64,000 bases of DNA from a virus. The stretch lies in IMG/VR virus record IMGVR_UViG_3300045988_183245; one strand, 5' to 3'. The translations under genes were made by a program, and so were the position numbers. This document shows positions 11,152 through 53,464 of the stretch, piece after piece. Position 1 is the first letter of the stretch. Each line of letters begins with the position of its first letter. Below the pieces are notes generated by a model that was given only the letters and a program-made list of their open reading frames with translations, did no database searches and was not told the origin of the DNA.

Positions 11152-11155
11152 AAAG

Positions 11156-11557
11156 TTACCCTCCTCTCTTTTTTTGCTGTTCTACATAGTGTTGAATCGT
11201 AGCGGTAGACACATCTCCGGCGGTGCTTACAAAATAGCTGCGTGTCCACATTTGCATAACCGTGTCAGGAAAAAACTCTTGCTTGAGTATTCTGCCGGTG
11301 GTTCCTTTAATAATTTTCATGATTTCTGCAGCACTTAATGTAGGCGGAGCATTCGCGAAAAGATGACAATAGTCTATATGACATTCCATTGCCAGTATCA
11401 CAATGTCGTTTTGCTCACAAATTTGAGTTACAAGTTCCTTGAAACGAGCTTCAAACCCATCCACCAGAAATAATTTTCTCCGATAGCGTGGGCAAAACAC
11501 AAAGTGATAATTTATCATAGAAACGGTTGTTTTTGTGCGTCTGTAGTTTCTTTTCAT
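11156..11557 (-). CDS. tnpA: IS200/IS605 TnpA (Y1 HUH transposase)
   Basis: 133 aa with NYHFVFCPRYRRK, the HUH-like motif ECHIDYCHLF, and the C-terminal WTRSYFVSTAG tyrosine motif. Confidence 0.8.
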   Translation of the reverse strand: MKRNYRRTKTTVSMINYHFVFCPRYRRKLFLVDGFEARFKELVTQICEQNDIVILAMECHIDYCHLFANAPPTLSAAEIMKIIKGTTGRILKQEFFPDTVMQMWTRSYFVSTAGDVSTATIQHYVEQQKKRGG

Positions 11558-11665
11558 GTATCTATTTTATCACAATTCAGACAATTTTATGTTACAGATA
11601 TATGAACTTTATATCACAACATCGTCACATTACAATTATATTGGCAAATACGAAGAAAACCATTA

Positions 11666-12064
11666 TTGTCGGCCTATCATCCCACGGTTGAAACCGTGGG
11701 CTTTCCCAGCCTTCATTTTGTAAAGACAAAAAGCGTCTTCTCAGAGCAGGCTGACCAAATGCTGTATCAGGTACGGCGCTTCGGGCAAAAAATGGCCGTT
11801 GCCTACAGCATGACCCAGGATAGCAAGACGTCCGGGGAACAAGCCAAGTGCCTAACGTTATTGGAATCCGCAGAACGTATCTTCTATGACCGACTGGATG
11901 ACGCGATTCGCTCGGCTTCAATGTTTGATGAAACGGAATACAAGGCTTTCTGTCTGGTCGGAAGCGGCACGGTCGTCAGCTACCAGTGCCACTCGATGGA
12001 TGAGGCGGTCGATATGGTCGCCGCCTTGTACAATGGCAGAAAAACAGAAGCAGCGCAAGCATAA
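11666..12064 (+). CDS. hypothetical protein (the true start is probably internal, about 11760)
   Basis: The ORF begins inside the IS end hairpin; no motif. Confidence 0.3.
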   Translation: MSAYHPTVETVGFPSLHFVKTKSVFSEQADQMLYQVRRFGQKMAVAYSMTQDSKTSGEQAKCLTLLESAERIFYDRLDDAIRSASMFDETEYKAFCLVGSGTVVSYQCHSMDEAVDMVAALYNGRKTEAAQA

Positions 12065-19515: not shown

Positions 19516-20994
19516 ATGATTACAACAAAGAAGATTGACCCACGGCCATATCAGCAGAAAGCTGCTGCGGCGATTGTCAATAAATATGGGGAAATGCCGA
19601 TTGATACACTCAAGGGCGGTGAAATTGCTCTGTTGCCGGAACCTATCAAGATTCGAAGCATGATAAGCGGCAATATCGGGTTTAAGGCTCGCTTGTTTCG
19701 AGCCATCACGGCATGGGGAAACAAAAAGAATGGCCCTGTCACAAACACTCTTTTGTCCAACAACAAAGCAAACACCGAGTATTTCGGACGTCAGCAGGGC
19801 AACGCCATCCCCATCACAATGCAAGATGAACATAAGATTTACGAAGCGGCTACAGATTTGCTCGGCTCCAAACATCGGTTTCCGGTTCCGGCCACTTCAC
19901 AGTCTCTTTATTCAAAGAATCAAATTATCTGGTCGGATGATATGCCAACAAAGCTGGAAGACGCGGTCATTGACCTATGCTGTTGCCGCAGTGATAAAGC
20001 TAAAACTATCTCTCAGGCAAATGAATCAGGTTCTGAAACCACTATCAGAATCCTTGAAAAAACAAAACTCTATCAGGGACGAATCACGGTTCTTTCGGAC
20101 ATTGAAAAGAACTTAGTCGTCAACGTCTGGAATCTTGATATGAATGATAAGGGATGTTCTGCATCCAGCTTTACGCAGATGACGCTTGGCGAGCTGCTTG
20201 GAAACTTTGCCAAGCATTACACTGACATGGAAATTGACCGAAGCCAGACTTGCCGAGATGCGGATGGAACCAGCCGAGATTTTGCAAGAGCCATCAACAT
20301 CTACAACTCACTTTTCGCCAAAAACAGTGATGGAAGCACGAGTTCTTTCAACAACGCTCTTTGGAAACAACTGAGTATCAGCATTTATTCCGGAACAAAG
20401 TATCCGGAGCAAGTCCTTTCCCTGGCACTGCTTCGGTCCTGCCGTTTGCTTCAGCAAAATAAGAAAGGCAAAGAAAATCGCATCACGGCGTCTTTGGCCG
20501 GTATCACAAAAGCGTTCTTAATTCGCAATTACGGAGAGAATATGACGATGGGACTCAACCCAAACAACACCAGCCCTGCTTATATCACAGGACGAATCTT
20601 CGCACATATGGAAAGTGCGCAGAGAAAGATTGACCCCAACAACCAAACCACTTACGCTAAACGGTTCTTTGAGCGAGTTATGATGAACCCGGCAAAAACC
20701 ATGCCGGAGCTTCACAAGAGTTTCCTTCTTTTGAAGAACAAGGCTAAAGCGAATGGCATGAGAGGTCTTTATAATTCCTGCGACAAGAAAATTATGGCTC
20801 TTATCGATATGCTGGATGGCAACTATCCCGACCATCTATCCGAAAAGCAAAAAGGTGAATATCTCGTCGGATACTATCAGCAGCGAAGCGCAAACATCAA
20901 GGATGCCGAGGAGAAGAAAAACCGGAAAGCCACCAAAATTGAAACTAATAATACGGATACTGCGGCAACCGTTGCAACACAAAAGGAGAAGTAA
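19516..20994 (+). CDS. candidate CRISPR large subunit (Cas8-like), 492 aa; assignment is by position only
   Basis: Sits immediately upstream of cas7, separated by 3 nt, which is the position of cas8 in type I-B/I-C operons. I recognise no diagnostic motif in the sequence. Confidence 0.35.
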   Translation: MITTKKIDPRPYQQKAAAAIVNKYGEMPIDTLKGGEIALLPEPIKIRSMISGNIGFKARLFRAITAWGNKKNGPVTNTLLSNNKANTEYFGRQQGNAIPITMQDEHKIYEAATDLLGSKHRFPVPATSQSLYSKNQIIWSDDMPTKLEDAVIDLCCCRSDKAKTISQANESGSETTIRILEKTKLYQGRITVLSDIEKNLVVNVWNLDMNDKGCSASSFTQMTLGELLGNFAKHYTDMEIDRSQTCRDADGTSRDFARAINIYNSLFAKNSDGSTSSFNNALWKQLSISIYSGTKYPEQVLSLALLRSCRLLQQNKKGKENRITASLAGITKAFLIRNYGENMTMGLNPNNTSPAYITGRIFAHMESAQRKIDPNNQTTYAKRFFERVMMNPAKTMPELHKSFLLLKNKAKANGMRGLYNSCDKKIMALIDMLDGNYPDHLSEKQKGEYLVGYYQQRSANIKDAEEKKNRKATKIETNNTDTAATVATQKEK

Positions 20995-20996
20995 CA

Positions 20997-21959
20997 ATGT
21001 CTGAACTCGTTAAGAATCCTATCACCATTGTTCTAGCGTTTGATGCGCAGAACTGTAATCCCAATGGGGACCCCGACAACGACAACAACCCGCGTCAGTT
21101 TGAGGATGGAATCGGGTACATGTCGTCCGAAAGCATCAAATATAAGATTCGCAGCTACATCCGTGACAAGGTCTTGTTTGACGGTCTGGAAAAGAACAGC
21201 CATGCACTATATTGCAGCCCCGATACTTTTTCCATTGAGCGCAGCGTTAAAGAGTGCCTGGAGCCTATCATCGGCAAAAAAATCAAAGGCATCCCCGATG
21301 ACCAACAGCTGGAGGCTTATAAGGAGCTGTGCCGGTACTACTATGATACTCGCATGTTTGGGCTTGTGAATACGAGTTATTCCAACTGCAGCCTTCTCAG
21401 CCGCATCAAGGGTGCCTGCCAGGTATCTATGCCGATGTCCTATGACCCTATCGAAATCATCCCGATGACGATTACTCGCTGCTGCGTTGCTTCCGATGCT
21501 GAACGCAAAGGCGAAGATAAAGGCGCCAAGAAGGGCGTCAGTATCGACGAAAGCGACGATGGAGTCGAAAAGAAGACGAAAGACCGCATGATAGGCCGTC
21601 GAAGCATTATCAGATATGGGCTGTATCACATGAGCATTCAAATCAACAGTGCAATGGCACAGCGTAACGGTGTTACGATGGATGACGTTAATTTGTTGAT
21701 TGATGCGCTGCAGCATATGTTCGAGGAAGATATGAGCTCCAGCAGAGCCCTAACGCTGCGTAAGTTGATTGTCGTTGAGCACACCAAACCGATGGGAAAT
21801 GCTTATCGGGACACCATTGAGCGGGCACTGGCGGCTCGACTGAAGCAACCTAATGATGCACCTACATCTTATGAGGATTACGAGGTGACTTATCACCGCG
21901 AAATGCTGCCTGATGAGGTCAAGGTGACTGAGTATAATTATAACAGTCAAAGCGTTTGA
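20997..21959 (+). CDS. cas7: Cas7 backbone subunit, Csd2/Csh2/DevR family (type I-B/I-C-like)
   Basis: N-terminal signature IVLAFDAQNCNPNGDPDNDNNPRQFEDGIGY...KYKIRSYIRDKV matches the family pattern FD..N.NPNGDPD..N.PR...G.G......KRKIRNY. Length 320 aa. Confidence 0.7.
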   Translation: MSELVKNPITIVLAFDAQNCNPNGDPDNDNNPRQFEDGIGYMSSESIKYKIRSYIRDKVLFDGLEKNSHALYCSPDTFSIERSVKECLEPIIGKKIKGIPDDQQLEAYKELCRYYYDTRMFGLVNTSYSNCSLLSRIKGACQVSMPMSYDPIEIIPMTITRCCVASDAERKGEDKGAKKGVSIDESDDGVEKKTKDRMIGRRSIIRYGLYHMSIQINSAMAQRNGVTMDDVNLLIDALQHMFEEDMSSSRALTLRKLIVVEHTKPMGNAYRDTIERALAARLKQPNDAPTSYEDYEVTYHREMLPDEVKVTEYNYNSQSV

Positions 21960-22289: not shown

Positions 22290-23695
22290 ATAAAAATTGT
22301 GCCCTGACGGCATCTGAATTGGATGCTGCCGGGGCATTTTGTTTGTTAAGGAGAATTTGGGGCTATTCAACTTTTTCCGGGGGTCTGAATAACTCATGAG
22401 CACAAAAGTCCATAAAGGAGGTGAGCCACTTTGAAAGTACATAAAGGCTATAAATTTCGGCTAGAGCCAACAGAAGAACAGAAAGTCAAAATCAATAAAA
22501 CGCTCGGCTGCTGCCGTTTTGTATATAACTCTATGCTAGATAGGCGTATAAAAGCTTATCAACGGCGCGGTGAAAGTATGAGCTATATTGATACACAAAA
22601 TCTGCTTCCTCAGATGAAAACTTATCTTCCTTGGCTTGCTGAAGTAGATAGTCAAGCACTCAAATATAGCTGTCGTCAGTTAAATAATGCCTATAAAGGC
22701 TTTTTCGAAGACGGTAAAGGGTTCCCCCAATTCAAACGAAAACGGGGAGAAGAAAGCTATACAACTACAAAAGCAAAAAGCATTAAAGTTGACGATAAGT
22801 ACATTCAGCTTCCGACACTTGGGAAGATGCGTTATCGTAAGAGTCGCAACATTGAGGGACGCATCTGTAAGGCAACAATCCGTCGCTCAGCAAGCGGCAA
22901 ATACTATGTAAGTATTCTTTGCGAAGTAGAAGTAATGCCGCTTCCGGTTAAAGATACCGTCATCGGTTTAGATGTTGGCATCAAATCTTTTGCTGTTGAC
23001 AGCAATGGAAAAGAATATCCAAACAATAAATATCTTCAGAAAGCGGAAGCTAAACTAAAGCGTGAGCAGAAAAAGCTGTCACGCAAAAAGAAAGGTTCTG
23101 CCAACTGGGAGAAGCAACGTATCAAGGTAGCTTGCTGCCACGAAAAAGTGACCAATAAGCGAAAAGATGCCCTACACAAGTTGTCATCTACACTGGTGAA
23201 AGAAAACCAAATCATCTGTGTAGAAGACCTCAATGTAAATGGTATGGTTCGCAATCATAACCTTGCTAAAAGTATTTCCGATGTTTCTTGGGGAGAGTTC
23301 TTCCGACAACTTGATTATAAATCCAGTTGGGCAGGAAGAGTAGTTGTAAAAATACCAACCTTCTATCCAAGCAGCCAGACCTGCTCTTGCTGCGGCTACC
23401 AAAACAAAGAGGTAAAAAACCTCAATGTTCGGCATTGGGTCTGTCCGAAATGTAACACATCACACGATAGGGATAAAAATGCAGCAGAAAACATTCTAAA
23501 GAAAGGAATGGACATGCTGGCTACGCCAGCCGCCTCATAACCACAGGCGAACAGTACGGTCAGGACGACCGAATCTTAAAGTCTGTGGAGAGCGAGCCTC
23601 TATCAAGAGCTGCGGCTTGCGGTAAGCTCGCTCTATGAAGCAGAAATCCATACTGAGTAACGGGGCAATCCGTGAAAAGTTGGAAGTCCGAATTT
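22290..23695 (+). mobile_element. IS200/IS605-family tnpB-only element (IS1341-like) inserted between cas7 and the helicase gene
   Basis: An imperfect LE-type hairpin gacggcatc-tgaattg-gatgctgcc lies at about 22300-22335. An intact tnpB follows, then a structured 3' non-coding region (candidate omega-RNA) at 23541-23690. Confidence 0.6.
22431..23540 (+). CDS. tnpB: TnpB (IS605 OrfB family, RuvC-like nuclease with zinc finger)
   Basis: GLDVGIK (RuvC-I), ICVEDLN (RuvC-II), CSCCGY...CPKCN zinc finger, and [10 protein letters not shown] (RuvC-III). Confidence 0.85.
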
Positions 23696-26420
23696 GGCTA
23701 TGACACTGAACAACTTGTCAAGCGAACAACAGAAATTCGTACATTTGGCATTGTCGGGCAAAAACGTATTGTGTGACGCCTGCATCGGCAGCGGAAAAAC
23801 ATCAACTATCAACGTACTCTGCGATGCATATCCGCCGGAACGGCGTATTTTGTACTTGACCTACAACCGATTACTCAAACTTGATGCCAAAGACAAAATC
23901 AAGAATGGCAATGTCCTGGTTCAGAACTATCATGGATTTGCAAGCCTGCTGCTGAACAAAAAGGGAATCCGGAATTGCGGACAAGGCGAACAGCTTGCCA
24001 TGGTATTGGAAAAGAAAATTCCGATTCCGCCGATTGATACTCTTATCATTGACGAGTATCAGGATATCAATGACGAGATTGCAGAACTGCTCAAATATAT
24101 CCGCTCTCAGAATCCCGGTCTACAAATCGTCGCTGTGGGCGATATGAAGCAGAAAATCTACGATGATACAGCGTTGGATGTCTGGACATTCATGCAGGAT
24201 TTCCTCGGCCGCCATGAACAAGTGATTTTCACAAAGTGTTTCCGTATTTCCCATGACTTGGCAGAACGGCTTGGCAATATCTGGGGTAAGACCATCAACG
24301 GCGTAAATAGCTCCTGTATCGTGGAACAGATGTCGGTCGATGAAGTGACAGAGTTCCTGAATAAGCAGAACCCCAAAAATGTCCTTTGCCTGGGTGCTCG
24401 AATTGGAGCCATGACGAAGGTGCTCAACGACTTGGAGAATCGACCGGGGAACCTCTATGACAAGCATCATGTCTATGCAAGTATCGCAGACAATGATGGG
24501 AATAAGGCAGTAGCACCCTCCTCGGATGTTGGTATCTTTACGACTTTTGACGGCAGCAAAGGTATGGAGCGGCCTATCTGCGTTGTGTTTGATTTCACGG
24601 AAGAATACTGGTCGTCTCGCACAAGCAAACCGATGGCACGATATGAGATTCTTCGGAATCTGTTTTGTGTCGCAGCAAGCCGAGGAAAGCAGCGAATCAT
24701 TTTCGTAAACTCAGACCATCCGTTGAGCGATAAATCTCTGATGACCCCAACTGAAACTCTTCGCGGATTTCCGCATCCGTTCGCATTTTCTGAGATGTTT
24801 GACCATAAATTCATCGAGGATGTAGATGCCTGCTATAAGCTGTTGGAAGTCACACCGATTGAACGTAATGATACCACGACCATTGATATCCAGACGGCAG
24901 ATGCAATGATTGATTTGTCTCCCTGCATCAGCATCTACATGCAGGCAGGATTCTTTAATTCCTACGATATAGATGACGTACTTGCGTATTACATGGACCT
25001 GCATAAAGACATGCAGTATTTGAAAATCAAGAAGGGCGCAACGGTCGAGGATAAGGTTCTACTACTCACAGCACTCGAAACGAATCAGTGCAGGTATGTA
25101 AAACAGGTCAAGCCTCCTTTTGTGAACGCAAAAGCCAAAATGTCGCTCAGTATGCGGCTTGGAACCGTGTTCACTCCCGATGAATATGTTCAGGCACGCG
25201 GCGATATCGACATTCATACTAAGGACCATAAAGTGATTTATACCTCGGGCCTTGCGGATGTCGTAAAGAATAATACCGTCTACTGCATCAAGTTCATCAG
25301 CAGCCTGGCACATAAGCATTTTCTGCAGTGTGCGTGTTCCATGATAGCATTGGGGCTGCCATATGGCGTTGTATGGAACGTCAAAAGTAACCTGATGTAC
25401 AGCGTGAAAATCAAGGATATAGACGCTCTGATTGACGCAATTACCAAGTGCATTACGAAACGGGTTTATGATAGCGCAGATGACTACACCTGCAGGAAAG
25501 GTTTTGTACAGGATACTGCGTCGATTATCGACCGATGGACTGACGACGGATATGCGGAAGAGGCCACCACTATCACTTCCGGCGACGGTATTGCCATCAT
25601 CAAGCAAGGAAGCCGCTATTTTGTGATGGACGGAGCACGTCGAAACACCCTGAACGATAATTTTGGGCTTGGTTTTGCCGATGTAAAAGATGCTTGCCTT
25701 GCTTATGCAAAGAGTTGTGAACTCCAGAAAATCGTGGACCATGATTCTCCTTATTCCGAAGTCGAATTCTGGCTCGACCAGAACAAGGCGTTTGAGGAAT
25801 ACATGACGCAGGTAAGCCATGAAATCGAACAGCACAAGGAAGGACCGTATGCAAAATACAAGTCTTTCGCCGCTCCCGCTGTCCGAAAGATGCTGGCTGA
25901 AAAGGGACTGACCATCACGTTCCCGGAAAAAGTCCTCATCAAGGTTTGGAAGATGCGCCGTGTCGAAGATGCCATGTATCAGAAAATCGAAGAAGCAAAG
26001 AAGCAGAACAGCCCCAACGTACCTCTTGATGAGGCGTTCTTTGACTCTGAACTGGTGGATTCCGTTGAGGGAAGCATCGAAAGCGCCAAGGCAAAATCCA
26101 AGCCCAAAAAGGAATCCGCATTACCGTTTTCCAAGTACGGCGCAGATGAGAAGAAGAGCTATCGTGTCGTGAAAAGCGATGAACTCTCAAAGCCCAACCA
26201 GCCCCGTTATGTTGTGGTCGAGGCCGCAACTGATAAGGTCTTGGACAACGCTAACGGATACGGATACCTCTCCTATCAGGCTGCCTGGAAAGGGTATTCG
26301 TACAAGAGCAAGCATCATCTGGATGGGGCAAAGAAGCCTATGAGCAAGAGCGCAAAAGAACGGGCTAAGAAAAAGGCAGCTTTCTTCTCGACCGATTCGG
26401 AACAGCTCAGTTTCGGCTGA
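23694..26420 (+). CDS. UvrD/Rep-like SF1 helicase N-terminal core with a roughly 550-aa C-terminal extension of unknown function
   Basis: Walker A DACIGSGKTST, motif II DEYQDIN, and an N-terminal FVHLA...G.N arrangement typical of UvrD. The C-terminal half is unassigned; GDIDIH...VYCIKF is only a weak nuclease-like pattern. Confidence 0.6.
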   Translation: MAMTLNNLSSEQQKFVHLALSGKNVLCDACIGSGKTSTINVLCDAYPPERRILYLTYNRLLKLDAKDKIKNGNVLVQNYHGFASLLLNKKGIRNCGQGEQLAMVLEKKIPIPPIDTLIIDEYQDINDEIAELLKYIRSQNPGLQIVAVGDMKQKIYDDTALDVWTFMQDFLGRHEQVIFTKCFRISHDLAERLGNIWGKTINGVNSSCIVEQMSVDEVTEFLNKQNPKNVLCLGARIGAMTKVLNDLENRPGNLYDKHHVYASIADNDGNKAVAPSSDVGIFTTFDGSKGMERPICVVFDFTEEYWSSRTSKPMARYEILRNLFCVAASRGKQRIIFVNSDHPLSDKSLMTPTETLRGFPHPFAFSEMFDHKFIEDVDACYKLLEVTPIERNDTTTIDIQTADAMIDLSPCISIYMQAGFFNSYDIDDVLAYYMDLHKDMQYLKIKKGATVEDKVLLLTALETNQCRYVKQVKPPFVNAKAKMSLSMRLGTVFTPDEYVQARGDIDIHTKDHKVIYTSGLADVVKNNTVYCIKFISSLAHKHFLQCACSMIALGLPYGVVWNVKSNLMYSVKIKDIDALIDAITKCITKRVYDSADDYTCRKGFVQDTASIIDRWTDDGYAEEATTITSGDGIAIIKQGSRYFVMDGARRNTLNDNFGLGFADVKDACLAYAKSCELQKIVDHDSPYSEVEFWLDQNKAFEEYMTQVSHEIEQHKEGPYAKYKSFAAPAVRKMLAEKGLTITFPEKVLIKVWKMRRVEDAMYQKIEEAKKQNSPNVPLDEAFFDSELVDSVEGSIESAKAKSKPKKESALPFSKYGADEKKSYRVVKSDELSKPNQPRYVVVEAATDKVLDNANGYGYLSYQAAWKGYSYKSKHHLDGAKKPMSKSAKERAKKKAAFFSTDSEQLSFG

Positions 26421-32639: not shown

Positions 32640-33380
32640 ATGTTCAAAATTCACGATGACAAAGTCTATTTCGTCGCCGAAACCCCCGATATCAACAAAG
32701 TTATCGAAATCTTCCTACCTAAGGATGACCGTGGCACCATTATGGATTCACACGAAATCCGTGTGGACCTGTGCCGTGCCGTCATTCACATGGAGAAGAA
32801 GGGTGTCCGTGTCTTGAAGGTCCGCAACATTGAGGATACCAACAAGGCAAGCATCGACATCTGGCACATGCCGGAATATCAGGAGGCTGCAGAGTCTCCC
32901 GTAAGCGATGTGGTCAATGCCTGCATTGAGTCCTGCTTTGATTCCGGTGCAATGTTCAATCTGCCATGCAAAGCCAACCGCAAAACCCATGAAGTTTTTG
33001 CTGTCGAATGCTGCGCAAGCCCCGATGATGATGACTCGTTCAGTTATGCAGAAGTGAAAATCAACGGCAAGGATTATCCTATCAATTTTATTGACGATAT
33101 TCTTCTCGAAAACAATGTTGATGATGCGCTGGATGAGTTTTATAGAATTCAGCAGACAGGCGAGTATTGGCAGCCTGATGGCAACAAAACGCTGGATGAT
33201 GCCATTCACGAATGTCGTTGGGCTATCCTGAAGGATGCCATCCAGAAGCGCGGACATGAGGCTGTTGCTGATTTTGTCGGGACCGACATTTCCAGCGATA
33301 CTTACGACCGCGTGATGGATGAAACCGAAGCCCAGATGCCGGACGAAGAGTTCGAGCGCTTCTGGGAAAAGTACATCTAA
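32640..33380 (+). CDS. hypothetical acidic protein (246 aa)
   Basis: RBS aaggag 9 nt upstream of the second ATG. Confidence 0.45.
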   Translation: MFKIHDDKVYFVAETPDINKVIEIFLPKDDRGTIMDSHEIRVDLCRAVIHMEKKGVRVLKVRNIEDTNKASIDIWHMPEYQEAAESPVSDVVNACIESCFDSGAMFNLPCKANRKTHEVFAVECCASPDDDDSFSYAEVKINGKDYPINFIDDILLENNVDDALDEFYRIQQTGEYWQPDGNKTLDDAIHECRWAILKDAIQKRGHEAVADFVGTDISSDTYDRVMDETEAQMPDEEFERFWEKYI

Positions 33381-33415
33381 GAAACATCTCACACACAGAA
33401 AGGGAGCATATTACT

Positions 33416-33742
33416 ATGGCTATTTTCAATACCAACGAATTTCTCCGCAAAACCTTCAGCAAGACCATCTTTGGTACTGCTGCACTTCGTCCGGAAGCAG
33501 TTTGTGCAGACGGCTTCACCCTGTCGATTCAGGCAAGCGGCATGCACTACTGCATACCGAACGAAGACCTGTCGGACGGCAATTACTCTAAGGTCGAACT
33601 CAGCTACTTGTCTGAGGAGGTCGAAGAGTTTCTGCCGTTTGCTGAAGACGACGAGGCACCGCTGGCTACGGTCTACGGGTATGTGCCCGTAGAAACCGTA
33701 GACGCGGTTCTGGCCAAGCACGGCGGTATCGTCAACGCGTGA
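33416..33742 (+). CDS. hypothetical protein (108 aa)
   Basis: RBS aagggag. Confidence 0.4.
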   Translation: MAIFNTNEFLRKTFSKTIFGTAALRPEAVCADGFTLSIQASGMHYCIPNEDLSDGNYSKVELSYLSEEVEEFLPFAEDDEAPLATVYGYVPVETVDAVLAKHGGIVNA

Positions 33743-33758
33743 GGGGAGGGAACTTACG

Positions 33759-34085
33759 ATGGAAGTATTCACTATCATCGCCAATGAGGTCATTGGCTTA
33801 TCCGCAACGGAATGCACACTGATTCAGTTTAGCTACAATCCGGAGCAAATCCGTGACCCCGAAACGGTCCTGCGCAGTGCTGTCAAGGACTATCTCAAGA
33901 CGGATGAAGGCAAACGACAGCTGGAAATCAACTGTGGTTGCTGGAACTGGGGCGATGTCGATGACATTCCCGGCTCGTTCTTCTTGAACTATGGTCTGAC
34001 TAAAATCGCTCCGCCGGATGTGAATGTTGTCGTCGACCGCAACGAGAACTTCATGGACAACTACGAGGATTGCGAGGAAGAATAA
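33759..34085 (+). CDS. hypothetical protein (108 aa)
   Basis: RBS gagggag. Confidence 0.4.
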   Translation: MEVFTIIANEVIGLSATECTLIQFSYNPEQIRDPETVLRSAVKDYLKTDEGKRQLEINCGCWNWGDVDDIPGSFFLNYGLTKIAPPDVNVVVDRNENFMDNYEDCEEE

Positions 34086-34103
34086 CAGAAAGGGCATGAA
34101 AAA

Positions 34104-34844
34104 ATGCGTATTTATAGCGCAAACAACGTATTCATAGAAGTTACGCGCCGATGCAATATGTGCTGTGCGCACTGCCTGCGCGGAGATGCCGAAAGCATCG
34201 ATATTCAGGAGAAGTACATCGATGCTTTTCTCGACAACTTTGAGAAGGGAGCTTATATCAGCTCTCTTACCTTTACCGGTGGGGAAATCTCTCTGAATAT
34301 ACCGGCAATTCGATACACCTTGAAAGCTGTCAAAGAGCGCGGTATCGCCGTTGGAAGCTTTTACATGGTCACTAACGGAAAAGCTGTCGATAAGATGGCT
34401 GACCTTGCTATGGCGAGTCTGGAGTGGTGGGCCTACTGCGATGAAAAAGATGACTATATGTGCGGTCTTTGCATCAGCAGTGATAACTTCCACGAAGTAA
34501 TCCCGTATGAAAGTAAAAGTATCCTTAGTGGCTTGAAATATAACCGTAACGATAAGGTAACGGACTTTCATCTGGCTTATTTACTGAACGAAGGGCGTGC
34601 TAAGAATCTCGATTCGAATATCTATAAGAAGCGTGAACCTCATGTAGACAAGCTCGAATACGAATTCAACAAAACCGGCGATATCGACTTTTACAGCGGC
34701 GAGCTGTACTTGAACGCCATCGGTGATGTCGTTTCCGGCTGTGATTGGTCCTACAAGTCGCAGAAGAAATATCGTTTTGGTAATGTAATGAACAAAAACT
34801 GGCTGGAGAACATTTCCAACAGCGAGTTGTACATTGCAAGCTAA
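34104..34844 (+). CDS. radical SAM domain protein (small; NrdG/QueE-like)
   Basis: CNMCCAHC gives the Cx3Cx2C cluster, and TFTGGEISL is a GGE SAM-binding motif. Confidence 0.55.
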   Translation: MRIYSANNVFIEVTRRCNMCCAHCLRGDAESIDIQEKYIDAFLDNFEKGAYISSLTFTGGEISLNIPAIRYTLKAVKERGIAVGSFYMVTNGKAVDKMADLAMASLEWWAYCDEKDDYMCGLCISSDNFHEVIPYESKSILSGLKYNRNDKVTDFHLAYLLNEGRAKNLDSNIYKKREPHVDKLEYEFNKTGDIDFYSGELYLNAIGDVVSGCDWSYKSQKKYRFGNVMNKNWLENISNSELYIAS

Positions 34845-34869
34845 ACCATATCACAAAATCCGCGCCAAG

Positions 34870-37035
34870 GAAACCCACTGCGTGAGCGGTGGGAGGAATT
34901 GGCGCATGAGTTTTCAAGAATGATGAATGTGTACAATCTGTAAATAAGAAAGCTACTTGATTTCTTTTTGCATCAAAAAATATTATAATACCGATATAAT
35001 CAATCAAAGAAAGGAGGGCTATTATGGCTTTCGGAAACAAGAATAGCACGCCATCGTTTGCGTTGACTCTTTCCATGAAGGTCAGCAAACAGGATGAAAT
35101 TTTTCTTTCAAAAAAGTTTCGCATCGGATGTACGGTTTACAACCAAATGGTTACGAAAACCACAAAAATGTGGCATCAGCTGCGCAAAACACGTGAATAT
35201 AAAAACCTTATAAAAGCCATAAAAGTCGCTCCCGCCAACAGAGATGAACGGAAAGCACTTTTGGTGCAGCGTTCCAATCTGATTAAGCAAGCGGGCTTTT
35301 CTGAGGGTGCGTTCCACAAGTTGGTTGTGCCCTACCAGAAAGCGTACAACGTAAATTGCGATGTCGCTCAAAAAGTTGCGTCCGCCGTCTGGAAAGCGTG
35401 GGATGACTTCTTTTATGGAAAAGGAAAGACCGTACACTATAAAAAGTTGGACGATTTTGTGACCCTTTCCGGAAAGAAAAACAACAGCGGTATATTCTTT
35501 CGCCCGGCAAACCATACGGTGAGTTCGATGGAATCCGCTAAGCGAAAAGCGAAAAACTCTATCGAGAAAAAATACTTCGATGCGTACAGAAAACCCGACG
35601 CTAAAAAAGACGAAGAAGTAGTTCTTCCCGATGAAGTAAAAGCGCAAATGGACAAAGAGGTTGCCGATGCCACGGCGAAAATCAAACCGTATATCGGAGA
35701 AGGTAATCTGCGTATCATTTACGAGAAACACGAATTCCTTGTCAAAGTGCGCAACCCCGATACTCAAACTGGATGGTATCAACAGGAAGCGCTCAAATGC
35801 GGTGTGAAGTATTGCCGGATTGTTCGCTCATGGGTCGGCACCAAATGGAAGTATTACGCTCAACTTGTTTTGGAAGGCTATCCGCCCATCAAATGCGACA
35901 GTAACGGGGTCATAAAACACCCTGTTAAGCAGGGCCGCATTGGTATAGATATCGGCACACAGACTATCACGTTTTGCGGTAAAGATGTTTGCGACCTTCG
36001 TGTACTTGCACCGTCTGCCATAGCGGAAGCTCGCAATGGTCTTACCAAGGAAATCGCTCGCATTATGCGGCAAATGGACCGTTCGCGCCGTGCGATGAAT
36101 CCGCAATACTTTAACAAAAACGGAACCATCAAACGGCTAAAACGCAAGAACGGATATAAGCAAATTCGTCATTGGAACTATAGCAAAAACTATTATCGGC
36201 TGCTGTACAGGCTGCGGAATTTGAACCGCAAGCTTGCTGCCGTACGCAAGGCGGAGCATTATATTCTCGCCAACGAATTGCTGACATACGGCAACGAATT
36301 CGTAGTTGAAGATATGAACTACAAAGCCTTGCAGAAGCGCAGCAAGAAAACGAAAACCAACCCCAAAACCGGTAGAGCGCATTCCAAAAAGCGGTTTGGC
36401 AAATCTATAGGACGCTGCGCTCCAGCTTTGTTTATCACCATTTTGGGGCAAAAAGCAAGTCGTTGCGGAGGCAGTGTTATCAAGGTCAGTACCTTTGAAA
36501 CAAAAGCTTCGCAGTTTGACCATACCGACGATAGTTTTACCAAGAAAAAATTGTCCCAGCGTTTTGCTAAACTTTCTGACGGAACCGTTGTCCAAAGAGA
36601 TTTGTATTCCGCATTCCTTTTATTACATCTTAGGAAGAACCTTCAATCCTATAACAAGAAAACCATTAAAAAAGATTTCCCGCAGTTTAAGATGCTGCAC
36701 GACAAAACAAAAGAACGCTTGCAAAACAGCCACGAGTGGCTGCCTTGTAGCGTTGGCTTCTAAAGCACCTATAATTTAAGGGGGTTCGACGTAGCCCCAT
36801 TGATTGCCTTGAAGTGCCGCTTTCAGTAGCACTTGATAGGTGAAACCCTTGTCAAGGGGATATCTACACTTTTTATGCTGGCTCTTCGGGCATTTTGCCC
36901 TGCCTTTAAGCTTCGCTTTGGGTAGTAAGTACACTGGTCTATCGAAAGATAGTGTATCTGGCAGCTTTACGCTGTTGGAAAACCCTGTAACTGCATTGCG
37001 TCAGCATAGAATCCCACTCCGTGAGGGGTGGGAGT
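34870..37035 (+). mobile_element. IS200/IS605-family tnpB-only element
   Basis: Flanking hairpins cccactgcgtgagcggtggg (34874-34893) and cccactccgtgaggggtggg (37013-37032); the internal tnpB-like gene is intact. Confidence 0.6.
35024..36763 (+). CDS. tnpB: TnpB-like RuvC-fold protein lacking the canonical zinc finger (579 aa)
   Basis: GIDIGTQT (RuvC-I), VEDMNYKAL (RuvC-II), and QRDLYSAFLL in place of DRDvNAAiNI. No CxxC...CxxC. It is the intact paralog of the frameshifted copy at 9405-11151. Confidence 0.65.
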   Translation: MAFGNKNSTPSFALTLSMKVSKQDEIFLSKKFRIGCTVYNQMVTKTTKMWHQLRKTREYKNLIKAIKVAPANRDERKALLVQRSNLIKQAGFSEGAFHKLVVPYQKAYNVNCDVAQKVASAVWKAWDDFFYGKGKTVHYKKLDDFVTLSGKKNNSGIFFRPANHTVSSMESAKRKAKNSIEKKYFDAYRKPDAKKDEEVVLPDEVKAQMDKEVADATAKIKPYIGEGNLRIIYEKHEFLVKVRNPDTQTGWYQQEALKCGVKYCRIVRSWVGTKWKYYAQLVLEGYPPIKCDSNGVIKHPVKQGRIGIDIGTQTITFCGKDVCDLRVLAPSAIAEARNGLTKEIARIMRQMDRSRRAMNPQYFNKNGTIKRLKRKNGYKQIRHWNYSKNYYRLLYRLRNLNRKLAAVRKAEHYILANELLTYGNEFVVEDMNYKALQKRSKKTKTNPKTGRAHSKKRFGKSIGRCAPALFITILGQKASRCGGSVIKVSTFETKASQFDHTDDSFTKKKLSQRFAKLSDGTVVQRDLYSAFLLLHLRKNLQSYNKKTIKKDFPQFKMLHDKTKERLQNSHEWLPCSVGF

Positions 37036-37102
37036 ACGTCAATTATACATTGCCACTGTTTTCCTACAGAAACGGTGGCTTTCTTAGAAAAGGAGACCAC
37101 AA

Positions 37103-38536
37103 ATGACTGAAACAAAAGACATGTTTGAACAAATCAGCGCCATCTTAACCGATAAGAAAGATAAGCCGTTTTCCTATGAGGAGCTTGCAGCAATGCTCAA
37201 AACTGACCCTGATGCCCTCAAAACCTTTGATGAGGTCTATAAGACACAGGTTCTTGAAAGCGGAGAGCTGCATGAAAATATGCTCCAGTGGGATACAGCT
37301 ACAGTCAAAGCAATTTTCGACAAAAAGGTCTACTTCCCACCGGAACTCAATTCGCTCATTGACCGCATCGTCACAGAACTGGTGCTTGAAACGCGTCTGT
37401 ACATCTACAACGCGGAACGCGGTGGCTATTATGTGACATACTCTGCCAACCGCGACTTTATGACAGAGGTTACAAACGAGGAGTTGATACGCTACCCCGA
37501 AGAACTCCGTCCGCAGCTCACCGGAAAGTTGATGAAGATTGACATTTCTGAGCCGTCGTACAAGGAACTGCTTCAAAACTACGCAGGCTACAAGAATGCA
37601 AAGAACGACAGCACAAAAATGTTCTACTACAACATGTTCCGTCAAGGTCTTGACATCCTCGACCTTGATGACTTCACTTATCAGATGCTTGAGATGAACC
37701 CCAACTCTATGGGTTTCTGGTTTCCTCCTCTGGTAGAGGGATTGTACGGCAGCGCATTTTTCAAGGTTCCGGACACAAAAATTCTTCGCGTACCTATTAC
37801 CATGCTGCAGCTTACCCGCCTTGGTTTCGAGACGTTGAATCCCGTTACAAAGGAAATCGTGAACCGTTATTGCCAGAAAGTCTTCCATCTTGATGGATAC
37901 GAAGACTATTTTATCAAAACGGGCACGTATTCTTCCAAATACGAATTCCGCAACGCTCATATCCATAACCCGAAGGAAATCAATGAGATGGGCGAGTATT
38001 TCTTGTTTTTGAATCATCTGACATGCTCGATGGCATCCCCTCTGAACAATCGCTGCTTCTACGGCGCGAACACCACGAACGAGTGGGTCGTCAGAGAATA
38101 CATTAAGGACAAAGAAAATAACCCCACCATCTACAACGGTTTGCCGCTGCACACTGAATATCGCGTGTTTGTGGATTTTGATACAAAGGAAATCCTTGGC
38201 GCAAGTCCTTATTGGCGCAGCGATGTTATGAAGAACGAATTCAAAAAAGTCAGCAGCCCACAGGAACGCCATGATTATGTTGTCTACAAGATGCATGAAG
38301 ACATTCTGAACCAGCGTTACCACGAAAGCGTTCAAACTGTTCTGGCTGAACTGAAGAAGGTTATTCCTCGCATTGAGTTGACAGGGCAGTGGAGCGTCGA
38401 TGTAATGCGCAACGGCAATGATTACTACATCATTGATATGGCGCTTGCTGAGAACTCTGCTCTGAATGACTGCGTGCCGAGTAACCGCCTTCGTGCTTAT
38501 CCGCAGCAGTGGCTGCCGGGTGAATCGAACAGCTGA
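37103..38536 (+). CDS. ATP-grasp-like domain protein (477 aa)
   Basis: The C-terminal EYRVFVDFD...SVDVMRNGNDYYIIDMALAENS resembles an ATP-grasp core (..YRV.V..D...E.N). The antisense ORF is rejected. Confidence 0.4.
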   Translation: MTETKDMFEQISAILTDKKDKPFSYEELAAMLKTDPDALKTFDEVYKTQVLESGELHENMLQWDTATVKAIFDKKVYFPPELNSLIDRIVTELVLETRLYIYNAERGGYYVTYSANRDFMTEVTNEELIRYPEELRPQLTGKLMKIDISEPSYKELLQNYAGYKNAKNDSTKMFYYNMFRQGLDILDLDDFTYQMLEMNPNSMGFWFPPLVEGLYGSAFFKVPDTKILRVPITMLQLTRLGFETLNPVTKEIVNRYCQKVFHLDGYEDYFIKTGTYSSKYEFRNAHIHNPKEINEMGEYFLFLNHLTCSMASPLNNRCFYGANTTNEWVVREYIKDKENNPTIYNGLPLHTEYRVFVDFDTKEILGASPYWRSDVMKNEFKKVSSPQERHDYVVYKMHEDILNQRYHESVQTVLAELKKVIPRIELTGQWSVDVMRNGNDYYIIDMALAENSALNDCVPSNRLRAYPQQWLPGESNS

Positions 38537-38657
38537 TACTCCTAGAACGAAACTTTGATTCGGATTCTTTCAGCAGAAAGCGTAGGAACCAAAATCATAC
38601 GAAATGATTGTGTTAACACATAAAAACAAGTATAATATATGCAAGGAAGTGATAATA

Positions 38658-39110
38658 ATGGTTCTGTATCATGGCAGCGATGTAATAGTCCGCAACCCTG
38701 AGGTCAGAAAAACAAGGTACGCCAAAGATTTTTCATGGGGATTCTATTGCACTAGCAACTACGAACAAGCCGCTCGCTGGTCAAAAAAAGGCAGGTCTCG
38801 TGGTATTGTCAACGTGTTTGAATATACAGAATCTCCCATGCTAAATATTAAGAAATTCCCCGAAATGAGTGATGAGTGGCTTGATTTTATTGCTATATGT
38901 CGCTCGGGCAAACATCATGACTATGATATTGTGGAAGGACCCATGGCGGATGACACCATTTGGAACTACGTCAACGACTTTCTAAGCGGTGATATTAGCC
39001 GTGAAGCTTTTTGGGCGTTGGCAAAATTCAAGCATCCCACGCATCAAATCAGCTTTCACACGGAAGTCGCTTTGAAATGTCTCTCTTTTAAGGAGGCGAT
39101 TGAAGTATGA
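38658..39110 (+). CDS. DUF3990-like protein
   Basis: MVLYHGS...DFSWGFYCTS...QAARWSKK matches the remembered DUF3990 N-terminal pattern. Confidence 0.5.
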   Translation: MVLYHGSDVIVRNPEVRKTRYAKDFSWGFYCTSNYEQAARWSKKGRSRGIVNVFEYTESPMLNIKKFPEMSDEWLDFIAICRSGKHHDYDIVEGPMADDTIWNYVNDFLSGDISREAFWALAKFKHPTHQISFHTEVALKCLSFKEAIEV

Positions 39111-47430: not shown

Positions 47431-47638
47431 TCAAGGTTTTCCTTTCCCCAATCTTGGTCGCATGGCTTCATTTGAGCTGACACAGGTGAAGCGTGAAAAT
47501 CATCCGTTTCATAGTAATATCCTTCCTTTCTTTGGCGCGGGTAACTCCGCGCCAGCCGTCCAAGCAAACAGCCTCCACGCGGCGGACGGTGGGCAACAGA
47601 TGTTTCCGTGTTCCGGGCATCTGGCTAATGTTTGTATT

Positions 47639-49068: not shown

Positions 49069-49144
49069 GGAGGGATAGCTTAGCTGGATAAAGCACCTGC
49101 CGCAAAGCAGGGTATCGATGGTTCGAGGCCATCTCCCTTCTCCA
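49069..49144 (+). tRNA. tRNA-like gene with an aberrant anticodon arm (possible pseudo-tRNA)
   Basis: Acceptor, D and T arms are good (ggaggga / tcccttc; gatgg-ttcgagg-ccatc; CCA). The anticodon arm only pairs as cctgc-cgcaaa-gcagg, giving a 6-nt loop. Confidence 0.35.
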
Positions 49145-51469: not shown

Positions 51470-51850
51470 GTGTATGCTATTATACAGAATGTATATTCGA
51501 GGATTCGCCAAACGGTAAGGCATCAGGCTTTGACAAACGAAACAGAACAATCGCTAAAAGAGTCTCTGCAGCAGACCGCCGAAACCATAAAAATCAATAT
51601 TGTAGAAATGGAATGCATGCCTGACCATATTCACCTGTTGGTGGAGTGTTCACCGCAGCATTTTATCCCGGATATGATAAAAGTGCTTAAAGGCAACAGT
51701 GCAAGAGCTATTTTTATCGCCAATCCGGACTTGAAGAAGCAACTTTTGGGCGGGCATCTTTGGAACCCAAGCTACTTTATTGCAACCGCCAGTGATAACA
51801 CGCGCAAACAAGTACAAGAATACATTGCATCTCAAAAAATAAGAAACTGA
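51470..51850 (+). pseudogene. tnpA: tnpA (IS200-type Y1 transposase), N-terminally truncated (GTG start; the first beta-strand is missing)
   Basis: Has the HUH motif MPDHIHLLV and WNPSYFIATAS, but no upstream in-frame sequence for the conserved N-terminal strand (a stop lies 5 codons upstream). Confidence 0.55.
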
Positions 51851-51868
51851 TGAAATGGGGGCTTCGCA

Positions 51869-53200
51869 GTGGAAATCACTTCCAGCTATGCTGTGGAAAT
51901 CAAAAAGCAGAAAATGTTCGACAATACTATAAAGATTTATCGCGAAGCCGTTTCTTTCTTGATTGGTTGTTTTAACAAAGAATGGGATTCTATTCAAAAA
52001 GTAGAGGGTGCCAAATCTCGAAAGAGTTTTGCCGAGAAGTTAATTCATACTACAAAATACAGCACTGCTAAATATGATTTCGATGCCAAGTTTTATAAGT
52101 TCCCTAGTTACCTGCGCAGAGCGGCTATTCAAGCAGCACTCGGCTCTGTAAGCAGCTACTACAGTAGCCATAAGAACTGGGAAGCAAACGGCAAGGTTGA
52201 CAGGGAGCCAAAACTTCAATGCGATAGATTTTGCTTCCCGGCTTTTTATAAGACCGTTATGTATGAGGAAAGCAACAAACCAAACCAGTGCTATCTGAAG
52301 CTGTATAAAAACAATGACTGGGTTTGGATTCCTATTGCAATGCGTGCCACCGATGTCAAATACATCACGAAATACTGGTCACATTGCGAAAAGAGTGCTC
52401 CCTCCCTCGAAAAGAAGTATGGAAAATATTTTCTTCGCTTCGCTTTCGTGGAGAAGGTAGAACTCTCTGAAACTGAAATTCAAGACAGGCGTATCTGCGC
52501 TGTAGACCTTGGCCTCAATACTGACGCCGTGTGCAGCATCATGACTGCCGATGGAACTGTCCTTGCAAGAAAATTTATCAATTTTGCAAGTGAAAAAGAC
52601 CATCTGTATCATGTGCTCAACCGTATTAAGCGTAAGCAAAGAGAACATGGACCTAAGAGTGCTGCTGCTATGTGGCGTTACGCCAAAGCCTTGAATAACG
52701 ATATAGCGAAAAAGGTTGCTGCTGCGATTACTGAATTTGCTGTGCTTTATTCTGTAGATGTGATTGTTTTTGAACATTTGTCATTTACAGGCAAAAAGCA
52801 CGGTGGCAGTAAGGCACAGAAGCTGTCGATGTGGAAGCGTAATTCTATACAGGATTATGTGGAACACAAGGCGCACCGCTGCGGTATCCGGATTTCGCGT
52901 ATCTGTGCTTGGGGGACAAGCAAACTCGCCTTTGATGGCAGTGGTGCTCTCAAGCGTGATGAAACCAATCGTGCCCTTGCAACGTTTGCAAGCGGCAAAC
53001 AATACAACTGCGACCTAAGTGCGAGCTACAATATTGGCGCTCGCTACTTTGTCAGAGAGTTGCTAAAACCCTTGCCAGCGATGGTAAGGTCTCAGCTTTC
53101 GGCTAATGTTCCGGATGTTGAGCGTAGAATCCAAGTTACACTTGCCACGCTTAAAGTTCTGTATCCTGAGCTTAAAAAACTCAGTACACAGGCAGCGTAA
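51869..53200 (+). CDS. tnpB: TnpB-like RuvC-fold protein with a degenerate zinc finger (443 aa)
   Basis: AVDLGLNT (RuvC-I), VIVFEHL (RuvC-II), WGTSK...CDLSASYNIGARYF (RuvC-III analogue). There is no CxxC pair. Confidence 0.6.
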   Translation: MEITSSYAVEIKKQKMFDNTIKIYREAVSFLIGCFNKEWDSIQKVEGAKSRKSFAEKLIHTTKYSTAKYDFDAKFYKFPSYLRRAAIQAALGSVSSYYSSHKNWEANGKVDREPKLQCDRFCFPAFYKTVMYEESNKPNQCYLKLYKNNDWVWIPIAMRATDVKYITKYWSHCEKSAPSLEKKYGKYFLRFAFVEKVELSETEIQDRRICAVDLGLNTDAVCSIMTADGTVLARKFINFASEKDHLYHVLNRIKRKQREHGPKSAAAMWRYAKALNNDIAKKVAAAITEFAVLYSVDVIVFEHLSFTGKKHGGSKAQKLSMWKRNSIQDYVEHKAHRCGIRISRICAWGTSKLAFDGSGALKRDETNRALATFASGKQYNCDLSASYNIGARYFVRELLKPLPAMVRSQLSANVPDVERRIQVTLATLKVLYPELKKLSTQAA

Positions 53201-53464
53201 GATGTAGGCTAACTGTGACAATTAGCTTTCTTGCGGTGAGTTTGTTCTTCGGGACTTGCTTGCTGAGGGATTGCTGTACCATTTCGTTAGCAAGTTCCTC
53301 TCCTTAAAAGAAGGGAAGCCCGCGACTTTAGTCGTGGGAGGATTCACCCTGACAACGGTTGTTCGACTCGACCATTCTCGACCAACGCTCACTTTCATGC
53401 GCATCGGAAGTGAGATTCCTCAAAGCTGTGTTCCCATAAGCAAGGCACGGAAGATGCGCGACAA

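Follow-up and report, generated by a model that had tools for sequence, protein, structure and literature searches.

We report that a 64,000-nucleotide (nt) stretch of the IMG/VR virus record IMGVR_UViG_3300045988_183245 (hereafter the window; position 1 is its first letter) carries three elements of the IS200/IS605 group of insertion sequences (IS), which we call A, B and C. Their tnpB genes encode a 579-amino-acid (aa) protein in element A, a frameshifted paralogue of it in element B, and a 443-aa protein in element C. The explanation that best accounts for our results, and in which we place considerable confidence, is that these elements have IS608-like ends, that their TnpB proteins have kept the catalytic acidic triad without the zinc finger, and that they would home to element-free sites guided by an omega-RNA encoded at the 3' end of tnpB. 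The coordinates of all these features are collected in Table 1.

The profile and structure comparison that an earlier, sequence-only reading of this DNA had proposed as a check places both intact proteins among the RNA-guided TnpBs. NF040570, the NCBIfam model of RNA-guided TnpB, matched the 579-aa and the 443-aa protein over nearly its full length (E 1.4e-17 and 5.4e-20, respectively); of 47 diverse relatives of the former, 43 were matched as well. AlphaFold2 (AF2) models of the two proteins reached a predicted local distance difference test (pLDDT) of 90.2 and 81.0, respectively, and their top Foldseek hits in the PDB were solely TnpB, Cas12f, Cas12m, Cas12p and Fanzor2 structures, in keeping with an RNase H-like RuvC fold and a WED/REC architecture like those of solved TnpB and Cas12f. 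The best of them were ISFba1 TnpB for the 579-aa protein (8iaz; E 2e-11, target template modelling score 0.73) and AsCas12f and OsCas12f for the 443-aa protein (E ~1e-12 to 2e-12). When the 579-aa sequence was compared with PDB sequences by phmmer it returned only noise, and a profile was required; the best solved sequence found with the profile of its relatives was Cas12n (9j09), with the GxDxG, xExx and RDL motifs aligned. An hhalign comparison of the same family with the canonical TnpB of the window gave a probability of 96.4%, with D, E and D in register, while the low-diversity alignment of the 443-aa protein gave an uninformative 1.7%. The 443-aa protein matched the Cas12f2 profile (E 5.5e-12) and aligned directly with the solved TnpB 9nzp over RuvC-II and RuvC-III. 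By profile and predicted fold, the two proteins and the frameshifted twin are unusual but recognisable members of the TnpB superfamily.

The RuvC-I, RuvC-II and RuvC-III blocks that had been read from the sequence are indeed kept. The 579-aa protein carries GIDIG (D309), VEDM (E429) and QRDLYSAF (D526), and the 443-aa protein carries VDLG (D213), FEHL (E302) and CDLSASYNIG (D382); both acidic triads align with the motifs of canonical TnpB. Neither of the outcomes that the sequence-only reading had named as refuting it, a non-RuvC family or missing acidic residues, was obtained. An alignment of the 47 relatives of the 579-aa protein shows no variation at D309 and E429 and at least 90% conservation at D526; in 24 relatives of the 443-aa protein none of D213, E302 and D382 varies. 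Moreover, the RuvC-III helix at the C-terminus of the 579-aa protein is present and confidently modelled.

Both proteins had been described as TnpB variants without the CxxC...CxxC zinc finger, and this holds: the open reading frames (ORFs) lie where they had been placed and the CxxC...CxxC motif is absent from these copies and across either family. Between the last RuvC strand and RuvC-III, CxxC was found in none of the 47 relatives of the 579-aa protein (34 of them have no Cys at all there), nor among the 24 aligned relatives of the 443-aa protein. A scan of 126 full-length cluster representatives, 108 of which bear the RuvC-III motif, gave the same result, with no CxxC within 45 residues upstream of that motif in any of the 108. 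The absence of the zinc finger is, as judged from these alignments, a fixed trait of the whole family and not a lesion of the copies in the window. The canonical TnpB of the window (Table 1) retains the finger (SSQTCSCCG...CPKC...), and profile alignment sets its four Cys opposite D499, D502, K516 and D519 of the 579-aa protein. The sole conserved residue near these positions is the near-invariant H500 (motif ASQxxH), at the place of the first CxxC, so that a replacement metal site looks unlikely. The length of the equivalent segment is unchanged, and its model is confident for the 579-aa protein but poor for the 443-aa protein. RuvC-III is of different types in the two families (QRDLY, like the 'typical' DRDxN, in the 579-aa family and NCDLS, like the 'derived' NADxN, in the 443-aa family), which suggests that they shed the zinc finger independently.

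The third tnpB had been described as a decayed twin of the 579-aa gene. It is frameshifted, and the cause of the split is a 10-bp tandem duplication (GTTGAAGCGG/GTTGAAGCGA, ~10023-10042) that is missing in intact orthologues. Identity with the 579-aa protein is 62% for its 400-aa half and 69% for its 208-aa half. Given this identity and the single disabling lesion, we regard it as a diverged paralogue that belongs to another sub-type and has a tnpA of its own, and not as a recent decayed copy.

The limits of element A were set from alleles without it. An empty allele in which CCATATCAC is directly joined to TTATACATTGCC was present in 46 IMG/VR contigs (47 matched the search pattern), and the window carries element A exactly between these two halves, with no target duplication. 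Congruently, the similarity of element A to a copy at another site (locus L001) stops at identical bases. The empty sites keep TCAC, the target-adjacent motif (TAM), directly 5' of the sequence matching the guide. The 4 nt before the left hairpin (34870-34873) are GAAG in most A-type copies, but GAAA in the window and in locus L011; since GAAA mismatches TCAC under the IS608 pairing rule, excision of element A may be impaired. The left end lies only ~150 nt upstream of tnpB. As for the right-end hairpin of A-type elements, locus L010 shows a compensatory change from C-G to G-C. Locus L041 is a chimeric element, with an A-type left end (without tnpA) and a B-type protein and right end.

Element B has an empty allele in 10 IMG/VR contigs, in which TTTGTCTTTAC is joined to TGCCGTTTGAA, and target duplication is again absent. 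Two observations were made on other loci: in L059 a B-type element is nested beside a C-type right-end hairpin, and in L051 and L055 the flank of the right end resembles the 3' end of a tRNA gene.

Element C is a remnant. Its empty site, GGCTTTGAC joined to CCTGACAACGG, occurs in 46 contigs, and the same left flank with its TAM lies at 51503-51534 of the window, where it is fused straight to the interior of tnpA; a deletion has removed the left end together with the first ~25 codons of tnpA, whereas complete C-type copies elsewhere possess both the left end and a full tnpA. The Pfam match of the tnpA begins at profile position 15, and the truncation is seen by comparison with locus L181 and similar loci. 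A search by regular expression revealed no left-end hairpin for element C, and it was this result that led us to recognise the deletion. The fusion of the TAM with internal tnpA sequence leaves the called 126-aa 'TnpA' as a remnant and this copy unable to move. As seen at 51503-51540 (+ strand), the deletion begins exactly at the junction of TAM and left end and stops after a TTTTGAT inside tnpA, with the microhomology TTTGA(C/T). It is compatible with aberrant cleavage by TnpA at a pseudo-site or with a deletion mediated by microhomology. Locus L172 shares the deletion, and the loss of the left end and the start of tnpA predates the divergence of the window from relatives such as this one. 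A larger deletion, reaching ~51698, was observed at the same site in loci L179 and L190. The earlier description of the genes as carried inside hairpin-bounded elements is therefore correct for A and B, which have hairpins at both ends, and not for C, in which only the right-end hairpin is left.

The ends follow the rule known from IS608, in which the 4 nt located 5' of the hairpin covary with the cleavage site. The pairs observed were GAAG-TCAC, AAAG-TTAC and AAAA-TTAT at the left end and GAAT-TCAA at the right end of A- and B-type elements. In C-type elements the left end has CAAG-TGAC or CATT-TGAA, and the right end GAAG-TCAC. A few copies depart from the rule, among them element A of the window (GAAA) and locus L045. 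Right-end flanks change with the insertion site, the A/B type having at least 18 different ones and the C type at least 10. Moreover, a Y1 TnpA is encoded immediately upstream of a tnpB of the family at 32 of the 80 viral loci and at 25 of the 80 genome loci. The three elements thus have the features of IS200/IS605 elements of the IS608 kind: they carry subterminal hairpins, lack terminal inverted repeats, and are inserted, without duplication of the target, 3' of a tetra- or pentanucleotide that is fixed; the left end of C is deleted.

Downstream of tnpB, the 3' regions of the elements are conserved as expected for putative omega-RNAs. In the A/B type, ~260-280 nt from the stop codon to the right end are conserved although the proteins are just 62-100% identical. 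In the consensus fold, compensatory changes occur at 19 of the 52 pairs; 98.8% of cells are paired, as against 42-53% in slid controls, and the covariation score is 0.38, as against 0.06-0.11. The structure came from the same alignment and most of the changes separate the two sub-types, so these values reflect fewer independent events than the cell counts suggest. Predicted long-range helices pair the last tnpB codons with sequences flanking the right-end hairpin. In the C type the right end lies 147 nt past the stop codon, its boundary being set from at least 10 different flanks, and conservation is high. The covariance check proposed for these flanks therefore gave a strong compensatory signal for A/B and a weak one for C. 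The sequence-only reading had placed the omega-RNAs in the 3' flanks, and conserved regions do lie there; their limits, however, are 37042 and 53347, not 37012 and 53318, and they likely start inside the ORFs. The omega-RNAs probably begin within the 3' ends of the ORFs and extend ~16-20 nt into the flank as guide. In the empty alleles the TAM is followed by that same flank, a layout that fits the one expected of a TnpB guide and its homing target by comparison with characterised systems (PMC10055086, PMC13565253).

Rfam searches returned no omega-RNA family for either element, with the gathering threshold on the whole window or in E-value mode on both 3' regions; the sole match in the 3' regions, Acido-Lenti-1, was rejected as due to chance. 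When nhmmer was run with the A/B RNA alignment on relatives at 33-46% protein identity, the region was not found, the only results being locus L090 and a weak match to the hairpin.

Table 1. Positions in the window of the three elements, their parts and other features
Feature	Position	Strand	Description
Element A	34855-37042	+	Non-autonomous IS200/IS605-type, tnpB and omega-RNA region, without tnpA; 2188 bp; limits from empty-site alleles
Element A TAM / left cleavage site	34851-34854	+	TCAC; T(T)CAC before the left end at at least 5 independent A-type sites
Element A left-end subterminal hairpin	34874-34893	+	CCCACTGCGTGAGCGGTGGG; read from the sequence; conserved among A-type loci
tnpB-A	35024-36763	+	579 aa; TnpB superfamily; D309/E429/D526 intact; zinc-finger cysteines gone
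Putative omega-RNA scaffold A	36739-37042	+	From the final ~25 nt of the ORF up to the right end; alignment A6
Element A right-end subterminal hairpin	37013-37032	+	GAAT before; AGTACGTCAA after; right cleavage site TCAA
Inferred guide A	37043-37062	+	TTATACATTGCCACTGTTTT; 20-nt length assumed; same sequence after TCAC in empty alleles
Element B	9146-11719	-	Autonomous-type IS200/IS605, tnpA, disrupted tnpB and omega-RNA region; 2574 bp; after TTAC (11723-11720)
Element B left-end hairpin	11681-11700	-	CCCACGGTTTCAACCGTGGG; AAAG before
tnpA-B	11156-11557	-	Full-length Y1 (HUH) transposase, 133 aa; PF01797 E 1.8e-31, whole profile; NF033573 E 8e-35
tnpB-B	9405-11151	-	Frameshifted paralogue of the 579-aa protein; split into 400-aa ORF (9949-11151) and 208-aa ORF (9405-10031)
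Element B right-end hairpin	9155-9174	-	CCCACGATTTCAATCGTGGG; GAAT before; right end closes with GGTGTCAA at 9146
Element C remnant	~51535-53347	+	5'-truncated IS200/IS605: truncated tnpA, intact tnpB, omega-RNA region, right end
Element C TAM	51530-51534	+	TTGAC
Called 126-aa 'TnpA' ORF	51470-51850	+	tnpA only ~51535-51850; N-terminal strand YNIQYHIVWCTKYRKPVL of intact copies missing
tnpB-C	51869-53200	+	443 aa; Cas12f-like 'derived' NADxN-type TnpB; D213/E302/D382; zinc-finger cysteines gone
Putative omega-RNA scaffold C	53127-53347	+	Right-end hairpin 53319-53338, GAAG before; ends with GGATTCAC
Inferred guide C	53348-53367	+	CCTGACAACGGTTGTTCGAC; 20-nt length assumed; follows TTGAC in 46 empty-site contigs
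Canonical fourth TnpB	22431-23540	+	369 aa; HTH_OrfB, OrfB_IS605 and zinc-finger TNB domains; between Cas7 and helicase genes
tRNA region	47.6-55.1 kb		17 genes

Both intact genes are under purifying selection, with a ratio of nonsynonymous to synonymous substitution rates (dN/dS) between copies of 0.07-0.12 for tnpB-A and 0.11-0.14 for tnpB-C. As the latter comparisons include locus L172, the immobile copy in element C still appears to be maintained.

Taken together, we propose the following model of homing, which is built by analogy with the work of Meers et al. (PMC10055086) and a review of OMEGA systems (PMC13565253). The Y1 TnpA, intact only in element B, would excise the element in single-stranded form and insert it 3' of TCAC (A), TTAC (B) or (T)TGAC (C), with the help of a 4-nt DNA guide and the subterminal hairpins. 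Folding of the tnpB transcript at its 3' end, together with the non-coding stretch up to the right end, would give the omega-RNA, the last ~16-20 nt of which would be a copy of the flank. Once loaded with this RNA, TnpB would cut element-free copies of the locus, which present the TAM followed by the flank sequence, and recombination with an occupied copy would restore or spread the element.

Several points weigh against this explanation. The NF040570 scores of the two proteins (64 and 72 bits) are under the curated cut-off of 100 bits, although the E-values are still highly significant, and in local Pfam searches (PF01385, PF07282) the 579-aa protein had no match and the 443-aa protein matched only PF07282, below threshold. 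The AF2 model of the latter has low confidence at residues 347-382, the region equivalent to the zinc finger. On the RNA side, the consensus fold of the C type has 7 compensatory pairs out of 56, a weak covariation, and the long-range helices that fix the 5' end of the A/B RNA rest mainly on invariant columns with little covariation, so we place that 5' limit provisionally. None of the three elements in the window is fully competent: tnpA is missing from A, whose DNA guide is also a variant, the tnpB of B is broken, and C lacks its left end. RNA binding and RNA-guided cleavage by both families are inferred by analogy with the experimentally studied systems, that the domain still does its job without zinc is an assumption, and the loss of the zinc finger could alter activity, for instance towards nicking or a preference for single-stranded DNA.

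This last point leads to the alternative that survives best, though we consider it improbable: the proteins would be active RuvC nucleases whose cutting changed after the loss of the zinc ribbon (nicks in one strand, or action on single-stranded DNA or replication intermediates only), so that homing would differ from that of canonical TnpB. A survey of TnpB diversity calls the function of zinc-finger loss unclear and perhaps lineage-specific (PMC10691335), which leaves room for such a change. The near-invariant H500 at the position of the first CxxC, and an omega-RNA region that is long in the phage (~280 nt past the stop codon vs ~165 nt in a Parageobacillus relative), also speak for it. Against it stands the replaced segment of the 579-aa protein, which keeps its length and is confidently modelled. 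Moreover, Cas12a and Cas12b cleave both DNA strands although their equivalent domain has no zinc finger.

Somewhat less probable still is that the phage has domesticated the proteins as RNA-guided DNA binders, that is, TldR-like repressors or target selectors. TldRs are TnpB derivatives of phages and prophages that have no zinc finger or RuvC C-terminus (bioRxiv 10.1101/2023.11.30.569447), and the state of element C, with its tnpB under purifying selection after the loss of the left end and the start of tnpA, would suit such a role. The triads of TldRs are degraded, however, whereas both families studied here keep D, E and D with little or no variation; both are associated with TnpA and found at many insertion sites, and the C-terminal RuvC-III helix of the 579-aa protein is present and confidently modelled. 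It is very unlikely that the genes are decaying relics of old insertions and the missing cysteines a part of that decay: every element of the window is defective (frameshift in B, left end lost in C, no tnpA in A), but dN/dS between copies is 0.07-0.14, the absence of the zinc finger is fixed across a family of more than 2,100 clusters at 50% identity, and the catalytic residues and the 3' RNA region are conserved.

Within the explanation that we prefer, RNA-guided homing, a bolder extension is conceivable although doubtful: a zinc-finger-less TnpB and its omega-RNA may act in large gut phages as a gene drive independent of TnpA, or as a weapon between phages. Speculatively, the conservation of tnpB (dN/dS 0.11) and the RNA region of element C despite the lost left end and tnpA start fits homing independent of TnpA. 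The TAM and target of this site are intact in 46 related phage contigs. In seven other related contigs (L310 and six other IMG/VR loci) the C site is empty and its TAM differs at one position, TTGAC having become TTCAC; they read GGCTTTCAC followed by CCTGAC, as compared with GGCTTTGAC followed by CCTGAC, and the 30-nt flank is otherwise identical. The variant could be an escape from cleavage by TnpB, which is speculative, or the scar of an imprecise loss via the right-end terminus TTCAC. If the gene-drive or weapon idea were true, co-infection would convert or destroy element-free genomes.

The window is apparently a piece of a large gut phage genome, with 17 tRNA genes and a ribozyme like that of hepatitis delta virus (HDV). 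Close relatives were found among viral contigs of IMG/VR and among metagenome scaffolds, up to 389 kb in length, and a megablast search of positions 33000-39000 against the INPHARED phages gave zero DNA-level matches, which places the phage outside that collection. The ribozyme, of the HDV-F-prausnitzii type (47555-47635, + strand; 50 bits vs a gathering score of 44), heads the tRNA region, 4 nt 5' of a tRNA-Thr (47640). In the same region ARAGORN called a tRNA-??? with the anticodon 'ca' and an irregular anticodon loop (49069-49144, + strand), on which the Rfam tRNA model is silent at the gathering threshold. At 19516-21959 and 23694-26420 (+ strand) the phage carries type I-C-like genes, encoding Cas8c/Csd1 (PF09709, E 2e-49) and Cas7 (PF05107, E 4e-53), and, downstream of the inserted canonical TnpB, a helicase gene of the UvrD/AAA_19 type; a direct-repeat search found no CRISPR array anywhere in the window. 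A protein with a PLD-family (NgoFVII-like) nuclease domain is encoded at 12586-14751 (+ strand), and directly upstream of element A lies a gene for a radical-SAM/4Fe-4S protein (34104-34844, + strand) whose stop codon is 10 nt from the left end of the element.

The 579-aa family comprises 2,121 clusters at 50% identity (E up to 0.001) from Bacillota and their phages, among them Geobacillus virus E3, Clostridioides phage phiCD211 and Clostridium botulinum phage c-st, whose member was annotated long ago as an IS OrfB. Bacterial members are named 'RNA-guided endonuclease TnpB family protein', 'transposase' or, in some RefSeq entries, 'hypothetical protein', and the phage branch has no Pfam domain on record, which is a gap in annotation. 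The 443-aa family is on record as Pfam PF27142, with the NCBI name 'TnpB-related protein'. We found no paper testing a TnpB with an intact triad and no zinc finger; the experimentally studied GstTnpB2 (WP_047817673.1) did not turn up in the clusters of the 579-aa family that were examined. The elements of the window offer well-delimited natural TnpBs that kept the catalytic site after the loss of the zinc finger, each with exact ends, a TAM, a candidate omega-RNA and a natural target. They make the purpose of the zinc finger directly testable, by setting two zinc-less proteins against the canonical TnpB of the same genome. Moreover, the occupied, empty and TAM-variant alleles among related contigs constitute a data set on the spread of IS605 elements between co-infecting phages by RNA-guided homing.

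Among known systems, the elements resemble IS608 of Helicobacter pylori (IS605 group) in their imperfect subterminal hairpins and in the lack of inverted repeats and of target duplication. Element B also shares with it insertion 3' of TTAC, a right end at TCAA, and the gene order tnpA, tnpB, omega-RNA region at the 3' end. The DNA guides of IS608 are reportedly AAAG (left) and GAAT (right), the same as those of element B. Unlike IS608, elements A and C use TCAC and TGAC, with matching changes in the DNA guide, and their TnpB is of greater size (579 aa in the window and ~485-520 aa in relatives from bacteria), has no C4 zinc finger and falls outside the Pfam OrfB and TNB models. The resemblance extends to the TnpB-omega-RNA systems of ISDra2, ISFba1 and ISGst, for which RNA-guided homing was shown by experiment: the fold and the D-E-D motifs are alike and, as far as can be read from the sequence here, so are the encoding of the omega-RNA at the 3' end of the ORF and the right end, the guide derived from the flank, and a TAM that equals the target site of TnpA. 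The phage proteins differ from these systems in the replaced Cys, in RuvC-III (QRDLYSAF or NCDLSASYNIG vs DRDxNAAxNI) and, in the A/B type, in a longer non-coding RNA.

IStron membership was rejected, as the window has no Intron_gpI match at the gathering threshold and the left end of element A lies so close to tnpB. Cas12f is the best structural match of the 443-aa protein and Cas12n (9j09) the best PDB profile match of the 579-aa family; both of these nucleases retain the zinc finger, however, and the genes described here have no associated CRISPR array and lie inside transposon ends. With TldRs the proteins share a phage setting and the missing zinc finger, but not membership, since TldRs have lost both the catalytic residues and the transposon ends, whereas here the triad is intact, ends are present and the families are mobile. 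A published parallel to the missing C4 finger lies in the branches surveyed by Altae-Tran et al. (2023), some of which are virus-enriched; that survey reports the loss of the zinc finger in some TnpB branches and does not treat the finger as obligatory (PMC10691335). One major clade without it, RIIIr-4, occurs in viruses and is defined by a change of the RuvC-III Asp to His (PMC10691335); the proteins of the window keep this Asp (QRD, NCD) and do not belong to it. The sequence-only reading had called such lineages sparsely characterised, and rightly so, as the literature merely surveys them (PMC10691335). The TnpBs of the window are divergent members of a known system, in which zinc-finger loss has already been surveyed but not characterised and whose bacterial relatives already bear the name TnpB.

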